Shown here: positions 7,221 through 54,337 of the stretch, one piece after another
How positions within the stretch are numbered: the first letter of the stretch is position 1
How the letters are laid out: each line of letters begins with the position of its first letter
Source of the DNA: a virus
Lineage: Duplodnaviria > Caudoviricetes
Strand: one strand, 5' to 3'
Virus record (IMG/VR): IMGVR_UViG_3300021255_004000
Coordinates: 32,001-96,000 of that record
Length of the DNA: 64,000 nucleotides
Notes under the pieces: model-generated
The model's database searches: none
What the model was told of the DNA's origin: nothing
The model's input: the letters and a program-made list of their open reading frames with translations, nothing else
Translations under genes and position numbers: made by a program

Positions 7221-7259
7221 TTGTATTCCTCTTATATAGTTAGTAACAGCGATATGATT

Positions 7260-8711: not shown

Positions 8712-8727
8712 TTTTAACCTCGGATTT

Positions 8728-8756: not shown

Positions 8757-8783
8757 TTTTCCCTGGTTGTTGAAAACTGTTGC

Positions 8784-9092
8784 TTAAGCCTCAACATTTA
8801 CAGTTGCGGTTTTTGCAGCCTTTGTTGCTTTCTTTGCTTTAGGAGCCTTTGCAACAGGAGCAGTCTTTTCTGAGTTGATTACGAGAAGAGTTTTGCCGTT
8901 TGCCATCGGGAAGCGAGAAAGTCCTTCGCGGTCAACTGATGTGTTGATGTAGTTTTTGTACAAGTTGTAGCGGCTTACTCCGAGCTCTGCTGCAGCTTCC
9001 TTGAGGGTAAGGTCATTTTTGTAGTTTCCTGAACCTTCCTGAATTGCGAGTGCTGTGTTGAACTTGCGAACGATCTTAACTGTCTTTGCCAT
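8784..9092 (-). CDS. Small HTH DNA-binding protein with basic K/A tail
   Basis: LTLKEAAAELGVSRYNLYK HTH; KAPKAKKATKAAK tail; GGAGG RBS. Confidence 0.65.
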   Translation of the reverse strand: MAKTVKIVRKFNTALAIQEGSGNYKNDLTLKEAAAELGVSRYNLYKNYINTSVDREGLSRFPMANGKTLLVINSEKTAPVAKAPKAKKATKAAKTATVNVEA

Positions 9093-9165
9093 ATTAGGCC
9101 TCCTTTGTTGTTGCGGATCTTTTCCTTTCCGCTTTTTGTTGGTTTTTTGTCGGTTTGACAATAAT

Positions 9166-9194
9166 AATATAAAAGACCTGATGCAAAAGTTCAA
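9166..9194 (-). promoter_or_regulatory. Early-type promoter TTGAAC-N17-TATATT
   Basis: Conserved repeat. Confidence 0.8.
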
Positions 9195-9214
9195 AAAATA
9201 TGAAAAATTTTCCC

Positions 9215-41160: not shown

Positions 41161-42549
41161 TTACTTTAACAGATTTTTAATGTTTGCAATCAGAATTGCC
41201 TTGTCAGTTTTTCCGTTGTTTACCTGATCTTTATGGGCAACTTCCAGAGCCTTGCGGAACTTTTCACTTGGCTTGAAACCTAAAGCAATCAGATCATCAC
41301 CAGTTACAATAGGTGCAGGAATTGGCTGACCAATTAAGCTTACAATTTTTGGAGAAGCCAGAGCTTCGTCTAAAGGCATTTCTTCATCGTCAGCAGCAGT
41401 TTTGATACAACCATCGCTGTCGCTTCTGCACAGCTCGCACAGTAAGTCGAAGTCAGGCAGATTCAGAATACTCATAATTGCAAACTTTTTATCCAGCAGG
41501 CCTAACTGATGCATCTTCATATGATTTGCAACTAAGCCTTCAACACGATGAGCTGTTGCACAATCTAATCTTAAGTCTCTCAGGAACTTGTAAGCAATAG
41601 GAGCACCAACTTCTGCGTGATCTTTAACTGCAGGGAAACCATTTTTGCTTAAGCCATTTTTGCGGCCTGAAGCAGGCTTTCCACAGTCGTGCAGAATTGC
41701 GCCCATTATGAAAACGAAACGGTCAATTTCATTTTCAATTTTAGGAGCACGAGCAACTGCAGCTTTTACAACCAGCATTGTGTGGTTGAAAACATTGCCT
41801 TCACTGTGCCATTTTGGGTTCTGCTCGCAAGTTTTCATATCTTCGAAAATCTCAGTTAAGTGAATTGCATCGAAGATTCCCATTCTTCTCATAATTTCAA
41901 AAACTTCCATTGTGAAGTCTTTACCGCCAAAAGTTTTGATTAACTCAGCACATTGTCTTTCAACAGAAACATCAGCAAAAACAACTTCAGGTGTTATTTT
42001 GTTGATGTGTGCCTCGATTGCAGCAACATCCTTTTCATTTGCCTTGAAGCCTTTTGAAGCAACAAAGCGAACATATCGGAAGATTCTTAAAGGATCTTCA
42101 GTGATGCGGTCAACTGCGTTTCCAACAAAACTTAATGTGTTTGATTTGATGTCAGCAATACCACAACCTGTTGGGTCGATAATGTTTCCATCTTTATCTT
42201 CGTACAAAGAGTTTACTGTAAAATCTCTGCGGAAAGCATCATCTTCAATTTTGTTTGAAAACTTGATTGTGGGATGGCGGCCTCTTGTCAGGTCAGAACG
42301 CCAAGTTGCAATTTCAACCTGTTCACCATTGATGATTGGCATTGCAACTCCGTACAAGTTTGCTTTTCTTGTTTCTGTAACACCAAAGATTTTGTTGATC
42401 TCATCAGGTGTTGCATTTGTTGAAATATCATAATCGTGAGGAGTTCTTCCAGTCAGTTCATCACGAACGCAACCGCCGACAAAGTAGGCCTTAAAACCAG
42501 CATTTTCAATAGGTGTAATAACTTTTTTGATAATTTCCTGCTTTGTCAA
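41161..42549 (-). CDS. cca: tRNA nucleotidyltransferase (CCA-adding, class II) with HD domain
   Basis: VGGCVRD, DYD, RRDFTVN, EDPLRIFR, H...HD; array tRNA genes lack an encoded CCA. Confidence 0.9.
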   Translation of the reverse strand: MTKQEIIKKVITPIENAGFKAYFVGGCVRDELTGRTPHDYDISTNATPDEINKIFGVTETRKANLYGVAMPIINGEQVEIATWRSDLTRGRHPTIKFSNKIEDDAFRRDFTVNSLYEDKDGNIIDPTGCGIADIKSNTLSFVGNAVDRITEDPLRIFRYVRFVASKGFKANEKDVAAIEAHINKITPEVVFADVSVERQCAELIKTFGGKDFTMEVFEIMRRMGIFDAIHLTEIFEDMKTCEQNPKWHSEGNVFNHTMLVVKAAVARAPKIENEIDRFVFIMGAILHDCGKPASGRKNGLSKNGFPAVKDHAEVGAPIAYKFLRDLRLDCATAHRVEGLVANHMKMHQLGLLDKKFAIMSILNLPDFDLLCELCRSDSDGCIKTAADDEEMPLDEALASPKIVSLIGQPIPAPIVTGDDLIALGFKPSEKFRKALEVAHKDQVNNGKTDKAILIANIKNLLK

Positions 42550-42571
42550 TTTGAACCTCCGTTACAAAAAT

Positions 42572-42600
42572 AATATAAAAGACTTGCACGGAAAGTTCAA
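42572..42600 (-). promoter_or_regulatory. Early-type promoter TTGAAC-N17-TATATT
   Basis: Conserved repeat upstream of cca. Confidence 0.75.
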
Positions 42601-43169
42601 ATATTATGCAAAAGTGGATGATTCTTTTTATAGTCGAACTTCAAGCCGTCCTTTACAATTTTGACGATTTCATCGTAGCCTTTTTCATTACCATCAACGA
42701 CAACAAATGGGATTTTATTGGATTCGAGAAACTTGGATGTTTTTCCATCTATCTCTTTAGCTTCGCCTTCAGTTTGATTTCTTCCGTTAGGATTATATGG
42801 CTTCACACGATTGATGACGAAGTTGAAGTTGAAACGATGATACTTTTCAAACTCTTCAAGAGATGCAGCTTTCAACATTGGCTGATCTTCTCTTGCGTAC
42901 AATGCACCAAGAGCAATAGGGCTATCAGTGATAATTACATCGACTTTGCCAAAGCAGCGGCTTATTTTGAAAGACTGCTTTCCTGTAATGTAAAATTGAT
43001 TTTTGAAAACTTCAGAGTTGTTTTCCCAAACTTTATCTTTTGCAAACTCAGAAACATATTCACAGTCAATACCTGCAAGTTTGAGTTTTGCAAAAACATA
43101 AGCGGCGCCTGTAGATTTTCCTGCGCCTGGGCCAGCGAAAAGATTTACAATAATTGTGTTTTTATCCAT
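42597..43169 (-). CDS. P-loop kinase (NadR/nucleoside-kinase-like)
   Basis: AGPGAGKST, EFAK, ITDSP. Confidence 0.75.
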   Translation of the reverse strand: MDKNTIIVNLFAGPGAGKSTGAAYVFAKLKLAGIDCEYVSEFAKDKVWENNSEVFKNQFYITGKQSFKISRCFGKVDVIITDSPIALGALYAREDQPMLKAASLEEFEKYHRFNFNFVINRVKPYNPNGRNQTEGEAKEIDGKTSKFLESNKIPFVVVDGNEKGYDEIVKIVKDGLKFDYKKNHPLLHNI

Positions 43170-43183
43170 AGTTGGATATTAAC

Positions 43184-43207
43184 AAAAAAGGTTGCTAAAA
43201 AGCAACC
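43184..43207 (-). terminator. Intrinsic terminator ending the tRNA array
   Basis: GGTTGCT-tttt-AGCAACC-TTTTTT on minus strand. Confidence 0.75.
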
Positions 43208-43212
43208 AATTA

Positions 43213-43295
43213 CGGAACCTGCGTGAGTCGAACACGCTCAACCCGAAGGTTGTACAGCTTAGCAGGCTGCTGCATTACCGTCCTGCCCAGATTCC
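43213..43295 (-). tRNA. tRNA-Ser(GCT)
   Basis: Cloverleaf, loop CTGCTAA, long variable arm. Confidence 0.9.
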
Positions 43296-43304
43296 AAAAT
43301 ACTT

Positions 43305-43379
43305 TGTGAGTGGCAGGAGTCGAACCCGCCTTCATCTGATCCGTAGTCAGAGGCACCAATTCCGATATACCACACTCAC
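43305..43379 (-). tRNA. tRNA-Arg(ACG)
   Basis: Loop CTACGGA. Confidence 0.9.
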
Positions 43380-43389
43380 ATAAAATATA

Positions 43390-43503
43390 GGCCTGTTGTA
43401 AATAGTGCAAGATTTTCAGTCTCGTGTGTCACCGTTTCACCTCATCAGGAAACCCTGATGGTGGGAGTCGAACCCACTTACGATAATAGGAACAACTTTT
43501 GCC
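43390..43503 (-). ncRNA. Y-like stem RNA copy 1 with circularly permuted tRNA-Phe(GAA)
   Basis: Order T-arm, acceptor hairpin, D-arm, anticodon arm inside the conserved stem. Confidence 0.8.
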
Positions 43504-43510
43504 TTATGAA

Positions 43511-43584
43511 AGCATCATATCGGATTCGAACCGACCCCTACTGCTTGGAGGGCAGTCGTGCTGAGCCGCTAACACTAATGATGC
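43511..43584 (-). tRNA. tRNA-Gly(TCC), C33
   Basis: Loop CCTCCAA; U73. Confidence 0.85.
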
Positions 43585-43597
43585 ATATTAAAGTTTT

Positions 43598-43671
43598 TGG
43601 GACCTCGAGGATTTGAACCCCGCACCCAGACATTATGAGTGTCGCGCTCTGACCCAATGAGCTAAGATCCC
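43598..43671 (-). tRNA. tRNA-CAT (probably Ile2, possibly Met)
   Basis: Loop CTCATAA; GGG acceptor. Confidence 0.8.
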
Positions 43672-43674
43672 ATA

Positions 43675-44050
43675 AAGATTACACAGTACTAAGAATCTGT
43701 ATCGAACGTCGTACTCGGCGGGATCCTTTTCACTGATGAAGTTGAGTGGCTACTGTGTATCACCATTGATATGACCTGCCGTGGGACACGGGCTTCATCA
43801 TCCTTTGAGCAGCAGTTTTGAGTGACGAGTTCAAAACTTTATTGCCTCTAAGTGCCGCAGGTTCTGTCAGTTGTTTGAGAAGGACAGCGTATGTTAGACG
43901 CTTCCTTAATTATTGTACACTTGGTACAACAATCTCTCGTGTTTCCCTTGTCTTTCAAATCAGGCGCAAGTAAGAAACAAAGCGTTATGGAACCACACAT
44001 AATTCACATCATTTGTTGAACTCATAACCCTAGAAATGCCAAAATCCCTA
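43675..44050 (-). ncRNA. Candidate large structured ncRNA (~370 nt)
   Basis: No credible ORF; many hairpins; TGTTAATATA motif just upstream. Confidence 0.45.
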
Positions 44051-44074
44051 TGTTTTTATATTAACATATTCAAG

Positions 44075-44147
44075 TCAGCCACCTGGGATTTGAACCCAGA
44101 ACCTAAGGATTAAGAGTCCCTCGCGCTAACCGTTGCGCCAGTGGCCG
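44075..44147 (-). tRNA. tRNA-Lys(CTT)
   Basis: Loop CTCTTAA. Confidence 0.9.
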
Positions 44148-44152
44148 ATAAG

Positions 44153-44223
44153 TGAGCGATACGGGAGTTGAACCCGTCTCAGCAGATTAAAAGTCTGCGG
44201 CAAAACCGATTTGCTAATCGCCC
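44153..44223 (-). tRNA. tRNA-Lys(TTT)
   Basis: Loop CTTTTAA. Confidence 0.85.
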
Positions 44224-44233
44224 GTAAATTGTT

Positions 44234-44306
44234 TGAGCTTGATGGGAATCGAACCCACGACCCACAGATTAAAAGTCTGTTGCTCTACCTATTGAGCTAC
44301 AAGCCC
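44234..44306 (-). tRNA. tRNA-Lys(TTT)
   Basis: Loop CTTTTAA. Confidence 0.95.
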
Positions 44307-44400
44307 ATAAGATACTCAAACAATTTAACAGGCTTTGTCTAAGGCAGCAATTACTGCTGCCACTTCCGCATTTCCTCTCATAATCATAATTTACTCCTTG

Positions 44401-44473
44401 AGATGAGGATGGGACTCGAACCCACCTGTAACAGTTTTGCAGACTGCTGCCTCACCAATTTGGCTACCTCATC
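44401..44473 (-). tRNA. tRNA-Cys(GCA)
   Basis: Loop CTGCAAA, U73. Confidence 0.9.
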
Positions 44474-44484
44474 ATAATTTTATT

Positions 44485-44556
44485 TACCGCGTGAAGGAGT
44501 TGAACCTTCCTAAGCCGTCTTGTAAGGGCGGTGCACAACCGATGTACCAACGCGGT
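44485..44556 (-). tRNA. tRNA-Val(TAC)
   Basis: Loop CTTACAA. Confidence 0.85.
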
Positions 44557-44566
44557 ATAAAGTTGA

Positions 44567-44649
44567 CGGAAGCGACAGGAATCGAACCTGCGACCTTTTT
44601 AGGGGAGACTGTTTTCAAGACAGTTTGATGCGCCAACCAACTCGCTTCC
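44567..44649 (-). tRNA. tRNA-Ser(TGA)
   Basis: Loop CTTGAAA, long variable arm, G73. Confidence 0.85.
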
Positions 44650-44657
44650 AAATGTAG

Positions 44658-44730
44658 GGTGCCCATCGGGATTCGAACCCGACCCTGAAGATCCACAATC
44701 TGCCGTGCTAACCGCTAACACTATGGGTAC
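44658..44730 (-). tRNA. tRNA-His(GTG)
   Basis: Loop TTGTGGA, C73; no encoded G-1. Confidence 0.85.
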
Positions 44731-44732
44731 AT

Positions 44733-44805
44733 TGCTGAAGGCAGGATTCGGACCTGCTACATCTGCCTTATGAGGGCAGCGTTCAACCGTATGAACTTCT
44801 TCAAC
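44733..44805 (-). tRNA. tRNA-Met(CAT)
   Basis: Loop CTCATAA; T-loop TCCGAAT. Confidence 0.8.
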
Positions 44806-44812
44806 ATAATAG

Positions 44813-44883
44813 CCCAAACTCAGGGATTTGAACCCCGGCTAGATGATCTTCAGTCACCTGTGCTACCGCTACACCAAGTTTGG
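44813..44883 (-). tRNA. tRNA-Phe(GAA)
   Basis: Loop CTGAAGA; atypical G37 and G73. Confidence 0.75.
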
Positions 44884-44888
44884 ATATC

Positions 44889-44962
44889 TGTGGCATCGGG
44901 GATTCGAACCCCGAAAATTTGCGTTCTTAGCGCAACAAGTATGCCAGTTCCATCAATGCCAC
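44889..44962 (-). tRNA. tRNA-Leu(AAG), short variable loop
   Basis: Loop CTAAGAA; Leu-type D arm, 5-nt variable region. Confidence 0.8.
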
Positions 44963-45570
44963 AAAAGTGTATTAGTTCGTTCATCGTATCTAATAAAGAT
45001 ACAATGAAGTCTACTTTTAATGTAGTCCTCTCTGGCTTTATCTTTCATCTTTCCTTTAACAGAATTGTGATAGCCTTTCTTTTCATCATATTCAAAAGCA
45101 ATGTTCAATTCTTTGTCATAGCCATCAAGGTGATATGGTCCAACACAAACTTCTCCGCCATTCATAGCGTGTTGTAAATGCCAACCATATTTTGCGTTCA
45201 GCTCATCAATGAACTTACAAGCATTTTCATTATAATTGCAATAGTTACCAAGATTGTGTCTTTTCCGCATCATCTCAGCAAGTTTTGCTCTTGTTTCAGG
45301 CGTATGAGTGTGGCCTTTCTTAATCTCACGATTAGGATTCAGTCCACAGTATCTCATATGTTGTGTTTTTGACTCCTTATTATTGAAGATTCTTCCGCAA
45401 AAGTCACAAAAACAAGTTTCTTTTCTATGAAGAGACCTTCCCAAGGAGTCAAGTCCTTGTTCTAATCTTTTTTCACAAGTTTTCTTATGTTCAAAATAGT
45501 TTCTTCTACCTTGAACAACACAACCACAATATTCACATTTCCAATTTTGAGCGTTTTTGTATGTTTTCAT
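44953..45570 (-). CDS. Homing-type endonuclease (Zn fingers, NUMOD3-like, Vsr/PD-(D/E)xK)
   Basis: CEYC, CDFC, HTPETRAKL, LDGYD...FEYDE; 3' end overlaps tRNA-Leu. Confidence 0.75.
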   Translation of the reverse strand: MKTYKNAQNWKCEYCGCVVQGRRNYFEHKKTCEKRLEQGLDSLGRSLHRKETCFCDFCGRIFNNKESKTQHMRYCGLNPNREIKKGHTHTPETRAKLAEMMRKRHNLGNYCNYNENACKFIDELNAKYGWHLQHAMNGGEVCVGPYHLDGYDKELNIAFEYDEKKGYHNSVKGKMKDKAREDYIKSRLHCIFIRYDERTNTLLWH

Positions 45571-45622
45571 ATCAATTAGTAAAGATTGGAAGACACACTT
45601 AACATCTCAAACCCATATTAAC

Positions 45623-45692
45623 AAAAAAGGCAACTCCTAAGAGCCGCCTTGAAAGATTTGTAAACTGTTTCTGCTTACAACTTCAAGGCTCT
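45623..45692 (-). promoter_or_regulatory. Attenuator 3: antiterminator/terminator
   Basis: Terminator AAGGCGGCTC-ttag-GAGTTGCCTT-TTTT; its 5' arm can instead pair with GCCTTGAAG spanning the leader stop. Confidence 0.8.
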
Positions 45693-45811
45693 AATACGAA
45701 ATGTTTTCCAAAGAGAGAACGAAGGACCATCTTCGAACACATACCGCATCCCAATACGAAACTAACAAATGAGGAATGTTTAACTATGTTCGACATCTTT
45801 GAAAAATTCAT
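45683..45811 (-). CDS. Leader peptide 3 (42 aa) MNFSKMSNIVKHSSFVSFVLGCGMCSKMVLRSLFGKHFVLEP
   Basis: AAGGA RBS; composition matches downstream tRNAs. Confidence 0.8.
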   Translation of the reverse strand: MNFSKMSNIVKHSSFVSFVLGCGMCSKMVLRSLFGKHFVLEP

Positions 45812-45893
45812 ATTCGTCAATCCTTAGCTATCAGGTTGCTACCCAAAATGTTTTTTCTTATTGAATAGTTAGTAAACAATTCAATAAAGTAAG

Positions 45894-45966
45894 TGGACCT
45901 ACCGAGCATCGAACTCGGACCTCAGGATTGCAGATCCCGTATGCCAGCCATTAACACCTTAAGCCC
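45894..45966 (-). tRNA. tRNA-Ala(TGC), C33
   Basis: Loop TCTGCAA; G3:U70. Confidence 0.85.
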
Positions 45967-45971
45967 ATAAA

Positions 45972-46092
45972 AATCTTCTGTTTATCCGCGAAGGTTGTTA
46001 CCAACTCTTCTTTCCTCTTGGAGGAACTGCTTTGTTTATTCTCCCGCTCCCGCATAACGCGTCGGTGTTGCGTTAGGAATTCACAGAAGATT
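45972..46092 (-). ncRNA. Candidate structured small RNA
   Basis: 10-bp closing stem AATCTTCTGT/ACAGAAGATT with internal hairpins. Confidence 0.45.
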
Positions 46093-46094
46093 AG

Positions 46095-46167
46095 TGGACC
46101 GTAGGGGAGTCGAACCCCTCTTTCCAGCGTGCAAAGCTGGAGTACTAAGCCGATATACGAACAGCCC
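46095..46167 (-). tRNA. tRNA-Ala(TGC)
   Basis: Loop TTTGCAC; G3:U70. Confidence 0.9.
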
Positions 46168-46174
46168 AAAATTA

Positions 46175-46260
46175 AAAGCGGGTTGTAAAAATTTCGCCGC
46201 AATGACGAAATATTGGAGTCGAACCAATAATTTCCGTTTAATAGGAACAACCTTTGCTTT
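46175..46260 (-). ncRNA. Y-like stem RNA copy 2 (T-arm plus acceptor-like hairpin)
   Basis: AGC-AAA-GGTTGT-TCCTA...ATTGG-TTCGACT-CCAAT...ACAACC-C-GCT. Confidence 0.75.
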
Positions 46261-46261
46261 A

Positions 46262-46333
46262 TTCCTCTGCTAGGATTCGAACCCAGAACAACTGATCCAG
46301 AGTCAGCAGTGTTACCAATTACACCACAGAGAA
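46262..46333 (-). tRNA. tRNA-Gln(CTG)
   Basis: Loop CTCTGGA. Confidence 0.9.
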
Positions 46334-46334
46334 G

Positions 46335-46406
46335 TCGGACGAGAAGGAGTTGAACCTTCGAAATCTCGGTCCCAGGCCGAGTGACATACCGCTTGCCGAC
46401 CGTCCG
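46335..46406 (-). tRNA. tRNA-Pro(TGG), C33
   Basis: Loop CCTGGGA; C1:G72, A73. Confidence 0.85.
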
Positions 46407-46414
46407 AAAATGAA

Positions 46415-46486
46415 AGCACCTGAAGGGAGTTGAACCCTCGCCTCAGCCTTGGCAAGGCCGCGTACTAGCCGTTATACTACAAGTAC
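46415..46486 (-). tRNA. tRNA-Gly(GCC)
   Basis: Loop TTGCCAA. Confidence 0.9.
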
Positions 46487-46495
46487 ATAAAATAT

Positions 46496-46570
46496 TGGGG
46501 TGGGTGGAATTGAACCACCGTGTAACCAACTAACCTTTCTGCGGTTTATCAGACCGAGGGTATACACCCC
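46496..46570 (-). tRNA. D-armless tRNA-Ile(GAT)-like RNA
   Basis: Acceptor GGGGTG/CACCCC, CGGT-CTGATAA-ACCG, long variable region, canonical T arm, no D stem. Confidence 0.6.
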
Positions 46571-46587
46571 ATTGTGTTTCAAGTTTT

Positions 46588-46660
46588 CAGGTGCGGAGAG
46601 ATTCGAACTCCCACCGACGGACTTGGAAACCGTAATGCTAAACCTTTACACCACGCACCT
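46588..46660 (-). tRNA. tRNA-Trp(CCA)
   Basis: Loop TTCCAAG; A1:U72, G73. Confidence 0.8.
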
Positions 46661-46668
46661 ATAAATCA

Positions 46669-46721
46669 TTAAAGGCTCAACTTTTAGTTGAGCCTGTAAA
46701 ATCCAAATTTTACTAGGCTCA
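46669..46721 (-). promoter_or_regulatory. Attenuator 2: antiterminator/terminator
   Basis: TGAGCCT-a-GTAAAAT-ttgg-ATTTTAC-AGGCTCA competes with AGGCTCAAC-taaaa-GTTGAGCCT. Confidence 0.8.
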
Positions 46722-46853
46722 CTTGATCTGCCACTGTCCTGAAATTGGGGCAATAGCTGCAACTGGTGCAAAGCCGGCGAAAGAAACTGGAAGACTAATG
46801 TGGCCGGCAAGTTTTACTGACTTAACTGATTTACAAACCATCATTGCTTTCAT
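46719..46853 (-). CDS. Leader peptide 2 (44 aa) MKAMMVCKSVKSVKLAGHISLPVSFAGFAPVAAIAPISGQWQIK
   Basis: AGGAG/AAGGA RBS, TGTTAATATA motif upstream; stop TGA begins the antiterminator arm. Confidence 0.8.
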   Translation of the reverse strand: MKAMMVCKSVKSVKLAGHISLPVSFAGFAPVAAIAPISGQWQIK

Positions 46854-46958
46854 ATTGTCCTTTCTCCTATAATTTTATATTAACAACTTTTCAGAAGTTT
46901 CTGAAAAATTATTTTCAATATTTAGTTAGTACAGTTGCAAAAACTGTAAGAGTTTTAA

Positions 46959-47040
46959 TCGGCCAGGAGAGACTCGAACTCTCAATCCACACGGCGTCCG
47001 ACCTTAATTCGGATGTGTATACCAATTCCACCACTGACCG
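46959..47040 (-). tRNA. tRNA-Leu(TAA)
   Basis: Loop ATTAAGG, long variable arm. Confidence 0.85.
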
Positions 47041-47047
47041 AACAAAA

Positions 47048-47230
47048 TTAACTATCCTTTAAGTATGCAACAGTTTTTCCATTTTCAAACATTTCTTGTT
47101 GAAGTTTGGAAATCTTGTTGTAAAGATCTTGGCAAATGCCTTTTGATCTTCCACTTAAATGGAAGCGTGCCATATGTCCTAGCACGAATGCAAGTTCTTG
47201 CAATCTCTCGTTATCGAGTTTGATTGTCAT
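47048..47230 (-). CDS. Small hypothetical protein
   Basis: AAGGAG RBS before MTIKLD. Confidence 0.55.
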   Translation of the reverse strand: MTIKLDNERLQELAFVLGHMARFHLSGRSKGICQDLYNKISKLQQEMFENGKTVAYLKDS

Positions 47231-47275
47231 ATAGACTCCTTGCACCACCAATTTTTTAATGAAATTGGAAACATT

Positions 47276-47342
47276 GGCGAGCTGTAGCAAATATACATTA
47301 ACAGTGTATTGCCTCATCGGCGTAATAGGAACAACTTATGCC
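47276..47342 (-). ncRNA. Y-like stem RNA copy 3 displaying an Asn(GTT) anticodon stem-loop
   Basis: GGC-ATA-AGTTGT-TCCTA...ATACA-CTGTTAA-TGTAT...ACAGCT-C-GCC. Confidence 0.75.
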
Positions 47343-47351
47343 TAACATGTG

Positions 47352-47433
47352 TGGCCGCAGGAAGTTTTGCCATCTCTTCGTCCCCCGACTTACAAGGTCG
47401 GTGCTCTTAGGGCAGTCTGAGCTACATTTGGCC
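47352..47433 (-). pseudogene. Aberrant tRNA-Thr(TGT)-like element
   Basis: D arm and CCGAC-CTTGTAA-GTCGG intact; T loop and acceptor non-canonical. Confidence 0.5.
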
Positions 47434-47434
47434 T

Positions 47435-47740
47435 TTGCTGCATCATAAAAAGACAACGCAGCGAAATCCGAAGTTTTTCTTTCAGTTGCCACAACCAAGT
47501 ATTTTTCAACCCACGTCTCATTAAGACAACCTACACTGGAGCTTTTGGTAAAACTTTCTACCCATATTCATCATACGGTAACCATTGTAAAGGCCTTTAT
47601 GCTTGTTCCGCCAGGCTCCCCGCTGACCAAGCTGATGTCTCGGTAATTTTTCATACCAGCCTCACCTTGGGCTCATACTTCCTTTCCCCAAGTACTCTTA
47701 GGTTTTCACGCGACCTAAACTATCCCACGAGTTTGAAAGA
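47435..47740 (-). ncRNA. Candidate large structured ncRNA (~300 nt)
   Basis: GC-richer than coding DNA, many hairpins, no credible ORF. Confidence 0.4.
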
Positions 47741-47751
47741 GTTTGCTTTCT

Positions 47752-48054
47752 CTAGTAATAACACCACCATTTGATACGACAAGTTTCACTGTCGAAGCAT
47801 TCAGTAAGAATGTTATCAATTTCCTCTTCCGTTGTATCAATATTAACAGATTTCAGTCTGCTTCTGATAAGTCCACGAGAATCTTTTTTCTTCTCGGAAC
47901 GGTCTCCTTTCATCGCACGGCGAGCGTAACGATCACAAGGATTTCCCCAACGGAACCAGAATCTTCGAGCTTCCTGTGTACCGCGTCTTGCGGTATATTC
48001 ACCGTAGCTGAAGTTTGCCTTATAAAAGGCGCTCTCGCAATAATCATTTAACAT
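47752..48054 (-). CDS. Small basic hypothetical protein
   Basis: AGGAG RBS; 100 aa. Confidence 0.6.
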   Translation of the reverse strand: MLNDYCESAFYKANFSYGEYTARRGTQEARRFWFRWGNPCDRYARRAMKGDRSEKKKDSRGLIRSRLKSVNIDTTEEEIDNILTECFDSETCRIKWWCYY

Positions 48055-48251
48055 CTAGTGTATCTCCTACACTATCCGTAAGTCATACGCGATCCTCCTA
48101 TTATAGCATCATCGTTCACAGGATCGAACTGCAACCGTACAGACCTTTAGAGCCTATCCGTTTTACCCCACACAGGGCGATGTTGCTTATGGTTGAACGA
48201 GATGGCAACAACATTACTTGTACACCAACGTCATCTGCTATAAAACTAAGA

Positions 48252-48333
48252 TGGGCCAAAGGAGAGTCGAACTCCTAATCCTTTCGGCGACTGCTTTTGA
48301 GGCAGTTGCGTATACCAGTTCCGCCATTAGCCC
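48252..48333 (-). tRNA. tRNA-Leu(CAA)
   Basis: Loop CTCAAAA, long variable arm. Confidence 0.9.
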
Positions 48334-48339
48334 AAATGA

Positions 48340-48412
48340 TTGCGGGAGGTGGACTCGAACCACCGACCTTCGGGTTATGGGCCCGATAAGCTGCCAACTG
48401 CTCTATCCCGCG
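48340..48412 (-). tRNA. tRNA-fMet(CAT), C33
   Basis: C1:A72 mismatch, GGG/CCC anticodon stem, loop CCCATAA. Confidence 0.9.
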
Positions 48413-48427
48413 ATGTAACATGTGTTT

Positions 48428-48503
48428 TGACGCTGACAGGACTCGAACCTGCGACACCGAGCTTAGAAGGCTCGTGTTCTTATTCCAGCTGAACTACAGC
48501 GCC
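48428..48503 (-). tRNA. tRNA-Arg(TCT)
   Basis: Loop CTTCTAA. Confidence 0.9.
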
Positions 48504-48685
48504 ATATTGAAAGTACTTTATACGTCGGACCAGTCCGTTCAGCTTTCGCCTAGGGAGTTTCGAGGCTCCCACCTACGCATATCAACTTTCTGTGTGCTTT
48601 TCGGGCTTCTTCTACTAAGCACTTAAACTTTCAGTTCTGCTAGAAACCAAAGTTCTTGACGTTCTCTCTAGCAATGAGAACCGTA

Positions 48686-48760
48686 TAGCTGTTGCAGGAG
48701 TCGAACCTGCTATCGTAAAGGATATGAGCCTCACATATTGAACCGTTCTACCCAACAGCG
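48686..48760 (-). tRNA. tRNA-Met(CAT)-like, initiator-like variant
   Basis: Loop CTCATAT; 1:72 mismatch; weak D stem. Confidence 0.65.
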
Positions 48761-48767
48761 ACGTACA

Positions 48768-48891
48768 AAAAGACGAGTTGTATTATTCGTGCTCTAACCG
48801 CTGAGCTATCCGCCCACGAACGAGCGGAGTTGGATTCGAACCAACGACCCCGTGCTTAAAAGGCAACAAATAGGAACAACTTATGTCTTTT
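48768..48891 (-). ncRNA. Y-like stem RNA copy 4 with circularly permuted tRNA-Lys(TTT)
   Basis: TGC-CTTTTAA-GCACG, T arm, acceptor hairpin, D arm, then CG, all inside the conserved stem. Confidence 0.85.
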
Positions 48892-48893
48892 AG

Positions 48894-48966
48894 CGGTGTA
48901 TGCGGGAATCGAACCCGCCATCTCCTGCGTGACAGGCAGGCGAAATAGCCGATATTCAAATACACC
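48894..48966 (-). tRNA. tRNA-Asp(GTC)
   Basis: Loop CTGTCAC, G73. Confidence 0.9.
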
Positions 48967-49175
48967 AAATAAACAAACCACCTTCCAAACGGAACGCCCG
49001 ATACTTGATCTTAATGTCCGCACTTATCCAAGAGTTTCATTTCGCGCGAGAAACTCTCGGGGGTTAGGGAGCTACAGGTGCCTAGGCTTACTACGATTAA
49101 GCCAACAAATGCGAGCTCGTCTCACAAAGGTTTGTACTTTTTGCCAACTTCTGTCTAGAATGAAGTTGAAAGTAG

Positions 49176-49263
49176 TGGGCCGAGAGGGAGTCGAACCCCC
49201 GATGTTTGCCGTAAAGGTGACGGATTTACAGTCCGCTGACTTCGCCACTGGTCACACCGACCC
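49176..49263 (-). tRNA. tRNA-Tyr(GTA)
   Basis: Loop CTGTAAA, long variable arm. Confidence 0.9.
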
Positions 49264-49329
49264 ATAAAATTGATGGCCGTGCTCATCACACATTTACAAC
49301 ATCGTTTCGAGCAATGTTACCATCAAGTA

Positions 49330-49402
49330 AGCTACTTGTAGGACTTGAACCCACAACATCCTGATTACAGGTCAGGCGCTCTACCATTGGAGCTAAAGTA
49401 GC
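49330..49402 (-). tRNA. tRNA-Thr(TGT), C33
   Basis: Loop CCTGTAA; G1:C72, C2:G71. Confidence 0.85.
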
Positions 49403-49558
49403 ACAATAAAAGATAAATTACATTTTTTCTTTCCATACATCTTTCATTCTAATTTGTCCGCGGTCACTGAACGAAGAAGATGGTTGTATTAGATGTTCTA
49501 TAACTTTTCGGGGCCTTAAGCCCGTATTGAGTGTTTCAACATCAGTCTCTTATCTTTA

Positions 49559-49631
49559 AGCCGCCTGAGGGATTTGAACCCACAACATCCGCATTACAGG
49601 TGCGGCGCTCTACCATTGGAGCTAAGGAGGC
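49559..49631 (-). tRNA. tRNA-Thr(TGT), C33
   Basis: Loop CCTGTAA; paralogue of 49330-49402. Confidence 0.85.
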
Positions 49632-49634
49632 ATA

Positions 49635-49706
49635 CAGTTCCGAAAGGAGTCGAACCTTCGTTCTCTGGATGAAAACCAGATGGCCTAGCCGTTAGCCGAC
49701 GGAACC
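49635..49706 (-). tRNA. tRNA-Glu(TTC)
   Basis: Loop TTTTCAT. Confidence 0.9.
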
Positions 49707-49787
49707 AAAAACTGTGAACTACTTCTAAGACTGGACGGAAGTATAGCAGCTCGTTCAAAAGATATATTGACTTTCAAACTTTTGTCT

Positions 49788-49872
49788 CGTATCAGGCAGG
49801 GCTCGAACCTGCGATGGGCTTTCGCTCGGCAGATTAACAGTCTGCTGTCTTCGACCACTCGACCACTGATAC
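49788..49872 (-). tRNA. tRNA-Asn(GTT) with long variable arm
   Basis: Loop CTGTTAA, G73, class-II-like body. Confidence 0.85.
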
Positions 49873-49879
49873 ATATTTA

Positions 49880-50431
49880 TTATGTTAAAAAGATTTTTAC
49901 TTCTTCTATAAAGATTTTAGGATTATTGAAAATATCTTTCCAAGATTTTCTCAATTCTTTCCATCCTTCTTCATTCAGAAGTTTATCTTTCTGAACATCT
50001 CTTTCTTTTTGCTCTTGAAATCTTTCGTGTTGTTCACCATCAATTTCAACGCAAAGTTTTTTGTCAGGCCAAGCAAAGTCCAAAGAAAACCTATGAAAAG
50101 GAACTTCTCTGTAATAATCTTTATCAATTTCTTGACCAAATTCATTTCTCATCATTGTAATAAACCACTCCTCAGGATATGAAGGTTTATTATTCCAACG
50201 ACAATCTCCAATGTTATGAGCTCGACCTTCAGCGTGAGCTTTTTTCATCGAAGCAGAAATCTTTTGTCTAACATCATCCGACATTGTATGTCCGCAATGA
50301 TCCTTCAACTTCTGTCTTGTTTCTTCTGACAAAACAGGTTTTTCTTTTCCAAGAGCTTTAGCCTTAGTATATTGATTTGTACCGTGGCCTTTTCTTGCGT
50401 GCATTGCATCGTACCATTTTTGACTTTTCAT
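49880..50431 (-). CDS. Homing-type endonuclease (NUMOD3-like plus Vsr/DUF559-like)
   Basis: SEETRQKL, SDDVRQKIS repeats; LDFAW...VEIDGEQH...D..L...GW. Confidence 0.8.
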   Translation of the reverse strand: MKSQKWYDAMHARKGHGTNQYTKAKALGKEKPVLSEETRQKLKDHCGHTMSDDVRQKISASMKKAHAEGRAHNIGDCRWNNKPSYPEEWFITMMRNEFGQEIDKDYYREVPFHRFSLDFAWPDKKLCVEIDGEQHERFQEQKERDVQKDKLLNEEGWKELRKSWKDIFNNPKIFIEEVKIFLT

Positions 50432-50519
50432 ATCAATTAGTACGGTCCTCCGCTCTACATGTGTCCCTATCGTCGGAACCTATTGTCAACATCTTATCGT
50501 CGGTCCCTATTGTCGGTAG

Positions 50520-50593
50520 CGGGATATGCGAGCATCGAACTCGCGACCTCTAGCGTGACAGGCTAGCGTGGTAGCCAACTCCACCAATACCCC
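50520..50593 (-). tRNA. tRNA-Asp(GTC)
   Basis: Loop CTGTCAC. Confidence 0.9.
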
Positions 50594-50807
50594 AAAATTG
50601 TAGGTATAAGAAACCTTTTGCAAGGAAAGGAATTACCCGTATGCCTTTTACCAGCCAACAACTTGTTCAGTAGTTCCATTTCTGTTATCTGACCAATAGT
50701 GTTTCTACTGGCTCTGACAAGTTATCAACCAAGGATTCGAACCTTCCACCGAACGATACCACGAGGTGGCAGCAACCAAGCTGTTATTTTATTCCGTTTA
50801 ACGTTCT

Positions 50808-50880
50808 TAGATCTTGCGGGGATCGAACCCACTCCTCCACCTTGAAAGGGTGGCGACTCAACCTTTTTGTCCTAAGATCC
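50808..50880 (-). tRNA. tRNA-Glu(TTC)
   Basis: Loop CTTTCAA. Confidence 0.85.
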
Positions 50881-50935
50881 ATATTTGAAGTTTCCTTCTT
50901 TTGTTGTAAACCTTTTGTATCGGTTTTACAGAAAT

Positions 50936-50964
50936 AATATAAAAGAAGTTTTTTCAAAGTTCAA
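50936..50964 (-). promoter_or_regulatory. Early-type promoter TTGAAC-N17-TATATT upstream of tRNA block 1
   Basis: Conserved repeat. Confidence 0.8.
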
Positions 50965-50999
50965 AAATTTTTATTTTTTTGCAATTTTTGTTATAAAAC

Positions 51000-51061
51000 A
51001 AAAAAGGCAAACCTTCATCGGTTTGCCTCAGGGAAACATTTCTCAGTTCTCTAAGGCAACC
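51000..51061 (-). promoter_or_regulatory. Attenuator 1: antiterminator/terminator
   Basis: Terminator AGGCAAACC-gatgaa-GGTTTGCCT followed by a T tract; GGTTGCCTTAG (leader end and stop) pairs with CTGAGGCAAACC. Confidence 0.8.
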
Positions 51062-51173
51062 TTGTATCTTCATTATAATCGTATTCATCTGTAGTGATAG
51101 CAGTTCTAACATCATTATTCAATAATGATCTTGTTGTGAGAACTTCTGCTGTCAATGAATACAATGAAGTCAT
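51051..51173 (-). CDS. Leader peptide 1 (40 aa) MTSLYSLTAEVLTTRSLLNNDVRTAITTDEYDYNEDTRLP
   Basis: AAGGAAGG RBS, ACTAAT motif upstream; composition matches downstream tRNAs. Confidence 0.8.
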   Translation of the reverse strand: MTSLYSLTAEVLTTRSLLNNDVRTAITTDEYDYNEDTRLP

Positions 51174-51267
51174 TTTTAATAGCCCTTCCTTAATATATTT
51201 CAATTAGTACAACCCTTAAAAATGTAAGAGTTGTAATTTGTTCCTCGTATATTTATATTAACAGATT

Positions 51268-51867
51268 TTAGTCTTCTGCTGTAGGAATTTCAATTCCAAA
51301 CAGTTTTGATAACTTATCTTTCCAATTAAGGAAATCATCGTTATGGCCGCCATCTGCATAATAAGTTACACCGTCATAAATCTTATCATAATTTGATAAG
51401 AAAGCTTTACAGAACTCTTCGTTCTCAGGATCGCCATCGCTGGCAGTATCATAAAGCTCGTCAATAAGTGTATCAAGCTTCTCAATGCAGTTTGCTGCTG
51501 CTTCATAGTTTGTCCAAACTCTTGAGAGAATTTGGAATAAACTTATCAACTTCATAAACTTATGCTTCAAAGCATCTGTTTTGATTACATCATACATATC
51601 AGAAAGTTCGCCGCCTACAATAACTGGGACGCCATTCAATCTTTCAAATGCGTGACATAATTCGTGTGCAACATATTTAGGCAAGTCCTCTTTGGAAACT
51701 TTTTTCCAAACAGAAATACTCTTTTCTGAAATGTTGTACTTTGCTTTCATTCCTGTGTAGTCAAAGTCGACAACATTTATAGAAACACTTGGACACGGAA
51801 TACCTGCATCCTCAAGCTTATCAAGCAAATTGTCTAAACACGCCTGTGCATCTTCTTGTTTAATCAT
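51268..51867 (-). CDS. Zincin-like (HExxH) protein
   Basis: VAHELCH; AGGAG RBS. Confidence 0.6.
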   Translation of the reverse strand: MIKQEDAQACLDNLLDKLEDAGIPCPSVSINVVDFDYTGMKAKYNISEKSISVWKKVSKEDLPKYVAHELCHAFERLNGVPVIVGGELSDMYDVIKTDALKHKFMKLISLFQILSRVWTNYEAAANCIEKLDTLIDELYDTASDGDPENEEFCKAFLSNYDKIYDGVTYYADGGHNDDFLNWKDKLSKLFGIEIPTAED

Positions 51868-52035
51868 AAACGGTACTCCTAATATTTAGTTATAGGAGAA
51901 AGAGTTCTCGCCGGTTTTAATTTCTCAAACTACAGCCCCGCTACCTGCATTCGATTTTTGCAAGCCATACGAGTAGCATCACTGCTGCGAGGTTGATGGG
52001 ACTTTCACCCATAGTGACGTTTAACGAACTCCTAA

Positions 52036-52124
52036 TTCGGAAGGCGGGATTCGAACCTGCACGACGCTGATATGCGTCACCAGAATCAAAGTCTGGGGAG
52101 ATACCAATTACTCTTTACTTCCGA
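52036..52124 (-). tRNA. tRNA-Gln(TTG) with long variable arm
   Basis: Loop CTTTGAT; GACGC-atatca-GCGTC extra arm. Confidence 0.7.
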
Positions 52125-52244
52125 GTAAAATAGTTTTCTCACTCTTGTTTGCAACGCGACGCAAGATTCCAATAGGTGGACATATCCGATATTCCTATTA
52201 TACGGAAGGCCCTTAAGCGCATCTACTGCCGCGAGAAAACTATA

Positions 52245-52576
52245 GGTGAACCAAGGACTTGAACCTTGCCGTTACTCCAGCCTTGCGAGCTTCACGGATC
52301 CAACAGTGTCCACCATCATTATAAGTGCAGTCGGGAATTGAACCCGCTCTCAGCTGGCGTGATCCGCGTGGGACGAAGCCGTGCCTTTTTCCTTCATCGC
52401 ACTTAACAAGCCTTACGGATTGCTCCTGCTTGTAATGGAGTCTTAGAGGTTTGACTGCCAACCTTTAGAACATAGAGGATTCGAACCTCAGTTTCTGAGC
52501 ATACTACACTCAGCGTTCTAGACCCTGCCCTACTTTGCTGTGCACTGCTTTTTCGAGCTTTCGAACTAATGTTCTC
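52245..52576 (-). ncRNA. Three tRNA-like RNAs with acceptor and T arm but non-canonical interior
   Basis: T arms CAAGG-TTCAAGT-CCTTG, CGGG-TTCAATT-CCCG, GAGG-TTCGAAT-CCTC, each with paired ends. Confidence 0.55.
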
Positions 52577-52706
52577 CTTTGACGGTATCAACTTCATCCT
52601 GCGTCGTCATATACAGGCCTTTACCATCCGGTGCTTCCAGCGGTTGAGTATAACTCCTCATATTTCCCGTTCTCTGTGTAGCCATCTACGTTGAAGTTGT
52701 CAAATA

Positions 52707-52779
52707 TAGTTCCTACGGGGCTTGAACCCATTTTTCGAGCTTGAGAGGCTCGCGAATTAGCCAGTTATTCGAAGGAACC
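52707..52779 (-). tRNA. tRNA-Glu(CTC)
   Basis: Loop CTCTCAA. Confidence 0.85.
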
Positions 52780-52784
52780 AAAAA

Positions 52785-53015
52785 TTACATCTCAGGAATA
52801 AGCGTGCCATCTTTTAACCAAGCTTTTGGAGTAAAGTTTGGCATAGGCTGTAATGTTTCAAAAGACCACCAAGCATTATCATTTTTATCCCAAAGACCAT
52901 AACCAATGCCTTTTGAACCATCACTGTTAAAACCTACAAGAAGAACGACACCTTGATCTTTCCCTGCTTCCAAGTCAAAATTCCAAGTTGCTTCAACTGT
53001 TACTGTCTTTGCCAT
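52785..53015 (-). CDS. Small hypothetical protein
   Basis: GGAGG RBS, early promoter upstream. Confidence 0.65.
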   Translation of the reverse strand: MAKTVTVEATWNFDLEAGKDQGVVLLVGFNSDGSKGIGYGLWDKNDNAWWSFETLQPMPNFTPKAWLKDGTLIPEM

Positions 53016-53047
53016 ACTCGCCTCCTTGTTTGCGTTTTGACAATAAT

Positions 53048-53076
53048 AATATAAAAGAATGTTTGAAAAAGTTCAA
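53048..53076 (-). promoter_or_regulatory. Early-type promoter TTGAAC-N17-TATATT
   Basis: Conserved repeat. Confidence 0.8.
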
Positions 53077-53149
53077 AAATTCTTAAATATTTTTCAAAAA
53101 AAAATACCTGCAGCAACAGCCACAGGTATTATATTAACACTTTAGGCTA

Positions 53150-54337
53150 TTACTGTTGAACCTGCTGTTGAGCTTGCTCCAAAGCTAAGTTTGGATTTTC
53201 CTGAGCAACCTGAATTGCCTGAGCAACAACATCAGGATTGATATTTGCACCAAGCTGATTTCCATATCTTTTATAGAAATTAAGAGCTGCACCAACATTC
53301 TTACAGCGAATTGCTGCTGCTGCGAGAATCATATTCTCGACTCCATTATGATTTTGGAAGAACTGTGGAAGATCATTTCGAAGTCCCTGCTCGCCCTGTG
53401 CATTTGCCTGACCTAAGAACTTGGAAATATAATTTACCAATTCTTTAGCTCCTGCATCAGTACCATCAAAATTGTTAAGTTGCTTTACGATTGCATTTGC
53501 AGTCATATTAGCAGAAGCTTCGTTCATTTGAATAAGACTTTCAAAGAAGTTGGTTTTCTCATCTTTAGCAGGTTTAGCAGCTTCAAGGATTTCATTAAAC
53601 AAACTTTCTTTGAAGCCAAGCTTCTGAAGAATTGAAGATTTTGCTTGTGGCTGCGCAGCAGTTGGCATTACAGTTCCAGTGTTGTTATCAACAACCTGAG
53701 CATTCTTGTTCATTGACATATCAGGCTTTTCAGGAGACCAATCCTGCATTGCTGCTTTTTCTTTTGCTGGAGCAGCAGCGTAAGCTTTCTGAAACTTGTC
53801 AACACGAGCAGCTGCGGCAGGAGACATTGAGTTCTTTGCTGCAACTGGGTTAGCCCAAGCAGTTTTATCAGGTCCCATAGGAACGCCTACATAAACACCT
53901 GTTTTATCAACTTCTGCCTGTCCTCTTCCGTTAGGCCCTGGTGTTATATCACGAATGCCTTTGTTAGCAAGATCACCAGCAAGAGCGCGGCCTGATGCTT
54001 CGCCGTTTGCATACTGCATTGTTCCGCCAATCTGTGCTTCACGAATGTTTACTGACCAGTTCTTTTCGATTTTTGGAAGTATTCCTCTTACCCATCTCAT
54101 CAAACTGTTAAACTGTTCAGGATTTTCTGTTGGATGTTCTTCATCAATCTTTCCTGCGATGTATTCAACAATTCCTATATCTGGGTCATTTACGCCTGCG
54201 TCAACATCTTCGCAATATCTGCCATACCAAAAGTCAACATCAGCTTCAAGACCATCATAAGAATCAAAAAAGTTTCCTTCGCGGAAAGTATCATATGCAT
54301 ATCCTCTGTTAAGGAGGTCCTCAATCATCTTTTCCAT
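53150..54337 (-). CDS. Probable head internal protein
   Basis: ACTAAT motif; IRE, FKES, ILEA, MNEA putative cleavage sites. Confidence 0.55.
   Translation of the reverse strand: MEKMIEDLLNRGYAYDTFREGNFFDSYDGLEADVDFWYGRYCEDVDAGVNDPDIGIVEYIAGKIDEEHPTENPEQFNSLMRWVRGILPKIEKNWSVNIREAQIGGTMQYANGEASGRALAGDLANKGIRDITPGPNGRGQAEVDKTGVYVGVPMGPDKTAWANPVAAKNSMSPAAAARVDKFQKAYAAAPAKEKAAMQDWSPEKPDMSMNKNAQVVDNNTGTVMPTAAQPQAKSSILQKLGFKESLFNEILEAAKPAKDEKTNFFESLIQMNEASANMTANAIVKQLNNFDGTDAGAKELVNYISKFLGQANAQGEQGLRNDLPQFFQNHNGVENMILAAAAIRCKNVGAALNFYKRYGNQLGANINPDVVAQAIQVAQENPNLALEQAQQQVQQ

Follow-up and report, generated by a model that had tools for sequence, protein, structure and literature searches.

A candidate leader-peptide attenuator in front of a block of tRNA genes in a large gut phage

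Phage tRNA genes are usually seen as constitutive cargo that adjusts the codon supply or replaces tRNAs destroyed by defences. The stretch of DNA analysed here, called the window below, comprises 64,000 nt of a Caudoviricetes virus (IMG/VR record IMGVR_UViG_3300021255_004000, record positions 32,001-96,000) and corresponds to a piece of a large gut phage genome of roughly 290 kb. ARAGORN found 35 tRNA genes on its minus strand, between 52780 and 43212. A short open reading frame (ORF), leader 3, followed by a terminator, stands before the third block of these genes, and this arrangement raises the question of whether translation of the ORF governs transcription of the tRNA genes downstream. 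We consider, with a probability of about 0.55, that leader 3 and its terminator (unit 3) constitute a ribosome-stalling transcription attenuator that senses codons before tRNA block 3. This reading, which had been put forward by a model from the nucleotide sequence alone (the original prediction), is supported by conservation (the signals are kept in related phages), by covariation (compensatory changes in the helices) and by codon-level signals (a codon bias that was kept and a shift in serine codons), as well as by two sibling units.

Unit 3 was compared in 13 related loci (designated by L numbers), which were found by exact look-ups of the neighbouring proteins and of the leader peptides; 12 of them hold leader 3. 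The relatives of the neighbouring CCA-adding enzyme and of the small ORFs were on contigs of 281-313 kb from gut metagenome assemblies, some of the records being named gut or pig gut. Nine loci were 98-100% identical in the leader-3 stretch, L118 was slightly more distant, and L104, L106 and L122 formed a second deep lineage, with a CCA-adding enzyme about 75% identical.

Leader 3 and the codons of tRNA block 3

The elements of unit 3 and the genes that it would control are the following:

45857-45888, minus strand: A+T-rich hairpin (fold prediction), the loop of which is TACTAACT (45874-45867)
45821-45825, minus strand: Shine-Dalgarno (SD) site AAGGA, 9 nt 5' of the ATG (from the sequence)
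45683-45811, minus strand: leader ORF 3, starting with ATG, 42 codons plus TGA (ORF list)
45646-45689, minus strand: antiterminator hairpin, 9 + 8 bp (RNAfold with and without a ribosome mask)
45621-45650, minus strand: intrinsic terminator, 10-bp stem and 4-nt loop (45650-45627) followed by six U (45626-45621) (terminator scan)
43212-44963, minus strand: tRNA block 3, 14 genes (ARAGORN, Rfam)

The leader ORF found on the minus strand before the tRNA genes (45811-45683) had the composition originally announced, F5 S7 K4 M4 V5 H2 C2 G3 L4 R1 I1 N2 E1 P1. A, D, Q, T, W and Y are missing from the peptide and, as had also been claimed, block 3 contains no tRNA for any of them. The 5' arm of the antiterminator hairpin begins with the last base of the GAG codon, followed by the CCT codon and the TGA stop, and the terminal Glu and Pro codons are thus indeed involved in this arm. 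The 3' arm ends with AAGGC, the same 5 nt with which the terminator's 5' arm begins. Among the features expected of a leader-peptide attenuator, we found a conserved ORF with a ribosome-binding site and a start codon, a terminator between the leader and the tRNA genes, an enrichment in cognate codons, and the appropriate geometry of the stop codon.

Block 3 contains the tRNAs Leu(aag), Phe, Met(cat), His, Ser(tga), Val, Cys, Lys(ttt) (two copies), Lys(ctt), a second cat tRNA, Gly(tcc), Arg(acg) and Ser(gct). The tRNA calls and the composition count both confirmed that 38 of the 42 residues of leader 3 have a tRNA in this block, the unmatched ones being N, N, E and P. At the codon level, 29/42 codons are read by block-3 tRNAs under strict wobble rules (30 if the second cat tRNA reads ATA), and 35/42 (36 with ATA) if U34 reads whole four-codon boxes. 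None of the 13,374 sliding stretches of 42 codons in the 42 long ORFs of the window reached this match, and among the 217 ORFs of 30-60 codons that start with ATG, it was reached by two under strict and by one under lenient rules, leader 3 being counted in.

The single Arg codon is CGT, in agreement with the presence of Arg(acg), and the single Ile codon is ATA, both as expected. Part of the claim that ATA is read by an Ile2-type tRNA also held, since the codon and a second cat tRNA (43672-43597) are present; the Ile2 identity of this tRNA is probable and short of proof. It is made plausible by the fact that several relatives hold a tRNA-Ile(tat) in the same slot. This slot, between tRNA-Lys(ctt) and tRNA-Gly(tcc) (43597-43672, minus strand), is occupied by a cat tRNA in some genomes and by an unrelated tRNA-Ile(tat) in others (equivalent positions: L111, 9544-9619; L116, 9792-9867; L104, 18642-18716), which suggests that two different ways of reading ATA have been swapped at one site.

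The choice between synonymous codons also differed among the three leaders of the window. Leu is encoded by TTR in leader 1 and by CTY in leader 3, Arg by AGR in leader 1 and by CGY in leader 3, and Gly by GGC in leader 2 and by GGA in leader 3. For the amino acids with split isoacceptors, 15 of 20 codons belonged to the leader's own set, versus 9.5 expected (P about 0.01), and the same preference was observed in two other lineages (P 0.04 and 0.003). Serine gave the sharpest contrast. Where tRNA-Ser(UGA) is part of block 3, leader 3 contains six TCN and one AGY serine codons. In L104, L106 and L122, this tRNA is not in block 3 (it is in block 2 in L104 and L122), and leader 3 contains no TCN and three to four AGY codons, which are read by the remaining Ser(gct). 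The Fisher test gave values of 0.015-0.03 for this shift, which represents one evolutionary contrast.

Two further units of the same design are present upstream:

46673-46853, minus strand: sibling unit 2, leader ORF 46853-46719 and terminator 46695-46673, directly before tRNA-Trp
51004-51173, minus strand: sibling unit 1, leader ORF 51173-51051 and terminator 51029-51004, before the Glu/Asp/Asn/Thr/Tyr block

The numbers of codons matched by the tRNAs of each block (strict wobble) were as follows:

Leader 1 (40 codons): block 1, 27; block 2, 2; block 3, 5
Leader 2 (44 codons): block 1, 3; block 2, 11; block 3, 20
Leader 3 (42 codons): block 1, 9; block 2, 1; block 3, 29

As the codon sets of blocks 1, 2 and 3 have frequencies of 0.36, 0.13 and 0.32 in the proteome, every leader is about twofold enriched in codons of its own block, and the off-diagonal combinations are depleted, with the sole exception of leader 2 with block 3. 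We infer that this exception makes sense if the polymerase must pass attenuator 2 to reach attenuator 3. The peptides of leaders 1 and 2 are unrelated to that of leader 3. Their anatomy is alike, and the ORFs of units 1 and 2 also end within a helix that would compete with the terminator. No promoter-like motif separates the terminator from the first tRNA gene in unit 2, nor in unit 1 of the second lineage, and the tRNAs concerned would therefore be reachable solely by read-through. A fourth leader was not seen in the 385-nt spacer inside block 3 (44057-43673), the folding of which was no better than that of shuffled sequences (z -0.81).

Conservation and folding of the switch

As far as the contigs reach, leader 1, block 1, leader 2, block 2, leader 3 and block 3 follow one another in this order in 12 of the 13 loci. 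The exception was L108, in which leader 3 has been deleted together with the ten leading tRNA genes of block 3 (7136-9200). The ORF, SD site, hairpin and terminator of unit 3 were present in all related loci carrying the stretch, i.e. in two deep lineages and their variants. In the second lineage, the peptide is 54% identical and 46-47 residues long, owing to indels that total multiples of three; the frame, the ATG, the SD site, the hairpin with the stop codon and the terminator are all retained. The N-terminal and C-terminal segments of the peptide are conserved. It had been stated beforehand that the attenuator would have to be given up if the frame or composition of the leader was not conserved in homologous loci; both were found to be kept in the two lineages and in the variants.

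The two helices were analysed in an alignment of eight distinct sequences. In the antiterminator hairpin, 91.5% of the cells were paired and four pairs had changed on both sides; for the terminator, the corresponding figures were 92.5% and two pairs. Pairing and covariation exceeded every slid control for both helices, and in one case a C-G pair became U-A inside the close lineage. The codon bias was also kept during divergence. Leader 3 of L104 matches its own block 3 with 34/47 codons (strict) or 38/47 (lenient), and at the positions that differ between the lineages, 17 of 23 codons in the window and 19 of 28 in L104 are still in the set under strict rules (binomial P of 4.5e-5 to 0.04, depending on the background).

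Homologues outside this group were searched for in several collections. There was no close relative in phage GenBank, where a 1.2-kb stretch matched only tRNA or endonuclease fragments of unrelated phages. In IMG/VR, no relative of the CCA-adding enzyme was found and the terminator had no match. A scan of IMG/VR for the leader-start motif returned 95 stretches, and BLAST of 80 of them gave only matches of 21-26 nt at the motif itself; these stretches look like chance occurrences and were rejected as homologues. A scan of metagenome contigs with a tRNA-Leu(aag) pattern yielded no contig beyond one already in the comparison. A distant relative of the CCA-adding enzyme (46% identity) was discarded for comparison, as its gene is not beside a tRNA array. 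A word-indexed protein search with leader peptide 3 gave no match. Rfam cmscan of 42500-53500 (E <= 1) returned tRNAs and weak, unrelated matches only, none of them in 45600-45900, and the Trp, His, Leu, Thr and Phe leader models and the T-box model were unmatched in the same interval at this threshold.

The leader-3 stretch folds better than shuffled sequences (z -3.86). With a ribosome masking the stop codon, which lies within the 5' arm of the hairpin in both lineages, fold prediction gave the full terminator. With the ribosome stalled 6 codons upstream, it gave the full hairpin and a truncated stem of 5 bp, 3 nt away from the U tract. In the absence of any ribosome, the nascent RNA was predicted to fold into the hairpin. 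Assuming a footprint of about 12 nt past the A site, we estimated from the geometry that about 36 codons are far enough upstream to leave the hairpin free. Of the five codons of leader 3 that are too close to free it, the last three (TTA, GAG and CCT) are unmatched. A long-range pairing of the 5' untranslated stretch with the terminator, present in the minimum-energy fold of 45895-45600, was also considered and was rejected because its upstream partner is not conserved in the second lineage.

Proposed mechanism and rival explanations

If unit 3 is an attenuator, it would work in the following way. Polymerases would enter from the upstream side, probably after initiating at the leader-2 promoter and crossing block 2, or else after initiating near 45874. 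When the leader is translated fast, the ribosome that reaches the stop codon would cover or melt the 5' arm of the hairpin, the full terminator would form, and transcription would stop at 45626-45621. When a matching charged tRNA is scarce, owing to a mismatch between the host pool and phage codon usage, to decay of host tRNAs or to an anticodon nuclease, the ribosome would stall at one of the approximately 36 upstream codons and the hairpin would form first. By holding the base of the terminator stem, the hairpin would allow more read-through into the Leu, Phe, Met, His, Ser, Val, Cys, Lys, Ile2, Gly and Arg tRNA genes, and the new tRNAs would relieve the stall, closing a negative feedback loop.

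Several elements between the terminator and the tRNA genes, or behind the latter, bear on this scheme:

45615-45623, minus strand: promoter-like motif TGTTAATAT, overlapping the end of the U tract
44953-45570, minus strand: inserted ORF of 205 amino acids with a zinc-finger N-terminus (weak zinc-finger matches in Pfam), preceded by TACTAATT (45581-45574)
43190-43207, minus strand: terminator closing block 3 (terminator scan)

The motif TGTTAATAT has 12 copies in the window versus 0.8 expected, most of them 7-48 nt upstream of a start codon, and an A-rich stretch frequently follows (other sites are at 51263-51255, 46885-46877, 44066-44058, which is inside block 3, and 43184-43176). Copies stand ahead of leaders 1 and 2 and behind the terminators at 45650 and 43207, and in relatives lacking the inserted ORF one is found 7 nt before tRNA-Leu; in the second lineage the motif is degenerate, not intact. 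TGTTAATAT is probably a class of phage promoter. Another motif, TACTAAYT, has 11 copies versus 4.5 expected, 4-30 nt before many start codons (e.g. 51209-51202, 46931-46924, 45874-45867, 45581-45574 and 50442-50435). It is found upstream of all three leaders and directly before both endonuclease-like ORFs, and it may, including its copy TACTAACT, be a second promoter-like or a processing signal.

The original prediction also placed an endonuclease gene between the terminator and the tRNA genes. The 205-residue ORF does separate them, and a short motif is common to it and to the DUF559 endonuclease-like ORF at 50431-49880; it could not be assigned to a nuclease family, and Pfam gave weak zinc-finger matches only. 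It is an insertion that 4 of 14 loci carry (the window, L112, L115 and L117) and the other relatives lack, and it is probably a mobile gene of the homing-endonuclease type. Because of the short overlap between hairpin and terminator, and because a promoter-like motif and a mobile ORF stand between the terminator and the tRNA genes, control in the window is probably partial.

A number of observations weigh against an attenuator at this place. Of the 10 nt in the 5' arm of the terminator, the hairpin occupies only 5 (6 of 8-9 in the second lineage, with an overlap of 6-7 nt), the terminator fold is stabler by 1.7-5 kcal/mol, and the computed refolding barrier is about 2 kcal/mol for unit 3, versus 6-7.6 for unit 1. 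In these models, unit 3 is the weakest switch of the three. Since the overlap is short, the terminator fold stabler and the barrier low, its effect would have to be kinetic and is probably modest in size. Leader 3 samples about 11 amino acids of the block (14 in all) without runs of one codon; sensing would therefore be diffuse, and a shortage of any one tRNA may elicit a small response. Two conserved Asn codons are unmatched, as are 4-5 Asn and 2 Thr codons in the second lineage. An attenuator should have no promoter between its terminator and the regulated genes, and in the window lineage TGTTAATAT is found at 45623-45615 and again at 44066-44058, from which block 3 may be transcribed bypassing attenuator 3. 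The leader did not follow the losses of tRNA genes among close relatives: L109 has lost the His, Ser, Val, Cys and Lys tRNAs (8245-8851) and others have lost other members, and the leader is 98-100% identical. Finally, there are only two deep lineages, so that few independent events stand behind each comparative signal.

Some of these observations would also be expected if leader 3 was an independent small gene, encoding a Cys-containing hydrophobic/basic peptide of 42-47 residues and equipped with a terminator of its own and a hairpin that stabilises the 3' end. In that case, a separate promoter directly behind the terminator would drive block 3, and the codon match would be a by-product of the composition of the peptide. 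This would agree with the low barrier between hairpin and terminator, with the conserved ends of the peptide, with the fact that gene callers report a homologous ORF in the second lineage, and with the presence of TGTTAATAT after the leader 3 terminator, as at 43184-43176 behind the block-3 terminator. Yet the peptide, at 54% identity and with indels, has diverged faster than the adjacent enzyme, at 75%, and kept its codon bias, and the function of a peptide does not predict that synonymous choice for Leu, Arg, Gly and Ser tracks the isoacceptors encoded downstream. Nor does one expect from such a gene that the hairpin always holds the stop codon and overlaps the terminator, both being kept by compensatory changes, or that two more units are alike in design and encode unrelated peptides. 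Leader peptide 3 matched no Pfam or PHROGs family and had one other cluster only among 1.84 billion representatives. We regard an independent gene as unlikely.

A terminator coupled to translation in a more general manner, reporting ribosome availability, host shut-off or the stage of infection, or else acting as an insulator between blocks 2 and 3, would need no codon bias. The codon content of leader 3 is far from the proteome average, the three leaders differ in step with their blocks, and the shift of Ser codons from TCN to AGY tracks the position of tRNA-Ser(UGA). A general sensor or insulator is for these reasons distinctly unlikely, even if it would accommodate the 14 different amino acids of the leader with no single-codon runs, the formation of the hairpin in the nascent RNA without a ribosome and the unchanged leader after loss of block members. 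It is very improbable that the hairpin and terminator are an RNA element for processing or 3'-end stability of the tRNA precursors, with an ORF that is fortuitous and untranslated. The frame, the ATG and the SD site were kept across the multiple-of-three indels, in both deep lineages and all variants, and the codon bias survives at diverged positions. Such an element would account for the better folding than shuffles, for the conservation and covariation of the helices and for the fact that most public gene calls skip the window-type ORF, while no Rfam family was found at the stretch.

The tRNA array and known systems

The array in which unit 3 is embedded shows additional features. The last gene of block 2, the upstream neighbour of leader 3, is as follows:

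45893-45966, minus strand: tRNA-Ala(tgc) (ARAGORN; Rfam tRNA, 37.7 bits)

A 30-nt element (46044-46073, minus strand) lies between two tRNA-Ala genes, 100-290 nt upstream of leader 3. It occurs once per genome, with 0-5 mismatches, in every lineage (L104:16833, L109:7784, L118:7650, L106:614, L122:8804), and is identical between lineages whose proteins are only about 75% alike in sequence. It had no Rfam match and could be a protein-binding site, a promoter site or a homing target. Rfam scored two extra tRNA-like genes on the minus strand, 46495-46571 (32.9 bits) and 48686-48760 (37.3 bits), which ARAGORN did not call. In L114 and L122, ARAGORN calls a tRNA-Ile(gat) at the equivalent of 46495-46571; such a tRNA would bring the four ATT/ATC codons of leader 2 into the match with its own block. 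A weak match to YrlA (Y RNA-like) was found inside the array at 48788-48852, minus strand (32 bits versus a threshold of 69).

A sigma-70-like promoter (TTGAAC, 17 nt, TATATT) is present in three copies on the minus strand (53076-53048, 50964-50936 and 42600-42572). In the window lineage, one of them is situated behind terminator 1 and ahead of the first tRNA gene of block 1; it is absent from L104. Attenuator 1 too may be bypassed in the window lineage through this promoter. The array is highly polymorphic among near-identical phages (L108, L109, L113 and L116 compared with 43212-46000 of the window), and mobile ORFs of the GIY-YIG, DUF559, HNH and zinc-finger types occupy differing inter-tRNA sites among the relatives. 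The gene of the CCA-adding enzyme (42549-41161) adjoins the array, as does a gene for a P-loop kinase-like protein, and a gene for an Rnl1-type ligase is found near the array in relatives.

Taking the three units together, we put forward, tentatively and with somewhat less than even confidence, that the leaders form a modular, codon-programmed circuit for tRNA supply, in which each block is opened only by slow decoding of its codons. If so, the circuit would detect, for each codon family, when the host tRNA pool fails to match or when host anticodon nucleases attack, and would answer with the matching tRNAs, thus providing a demand-driven counter-defence with built-in negative feedback. If the leaders work as attenuators, the phage would gauge the speed of decoding on defined codons and turn on the matching tRNA genes, and classical attenuation, typical of amino-acid operons, would apply to tRNA genes as well. 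It would also be explained why the tRNA arrays of large phages are divided into blocks, the leader units would be compact and portable sensors of codon-specific translation stress, and the list of codons in a leader would predict which host tRNAs are limiting or attacked during infection.

Phage tRNA clusters, such as that of T4 and the arrays of large phages, offset the loss of host tRNAs or the action of anticodon nucleases. The array described here resembles them in its interspersed homing-endonuclease genes and in the proximity of genes for tRNA repair or maturation (the CCA-adding enzyme, and the Rnl1-type ligase in relatives). To our knowledge, control of such arrays by leader peptides has not been described. 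A full-text literature search for leader-peptide control of tRNA genes or of phage tRNA arrays found none, which is weak evidence of absence.

The closest parallels are the multivalent attenuators of enterobacterial amino-acid operons, i.e. the ilvGMEDA leader, with its Leu, Val and Ile codons, and the thr leader, with its Thr and Ile codons. As in these, unit 3 would comprise a short translated leader with several kinds of regulatory codons and an intrinsic terminator before the regulated genes. An alternative hairpin would compete with this terminator, and which of the two folds is formed would depend on where the lead ribosome stands. Unlike these, the phage unit would regulate tRNA genes rather than biosynthetic enzymes; its leader covers about 11 amino acids without codon runs, and its hairpin overlaps the terminator by just 5-7 nt. 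It also lacks a protector (1:2) hairpin, and the untranslated state would therefore favour read-through. In the trp, his, pheA and leu leaders (RF00513, RF00514, RF01859 and RF00512), stalling at the codons of a scarce tRNA likewise prevents formation of the terminator, but these leaders sense one amino acid by means of tandem codons and consist of four RNA segments. The pheST leader attenuator and the T-box riboswitches control the tRNA-charging machinery, and they share with the phage unit the coupling of the state of the tRNA pool to read-through of genes of the translation apparatus. pheST controls a synthetase, not tRNAs, and the T-box binds uncharged tRNA directly and needs no ORF, whereas in the phage unit the product of the regulated genes would be the very molecule that is sensed.

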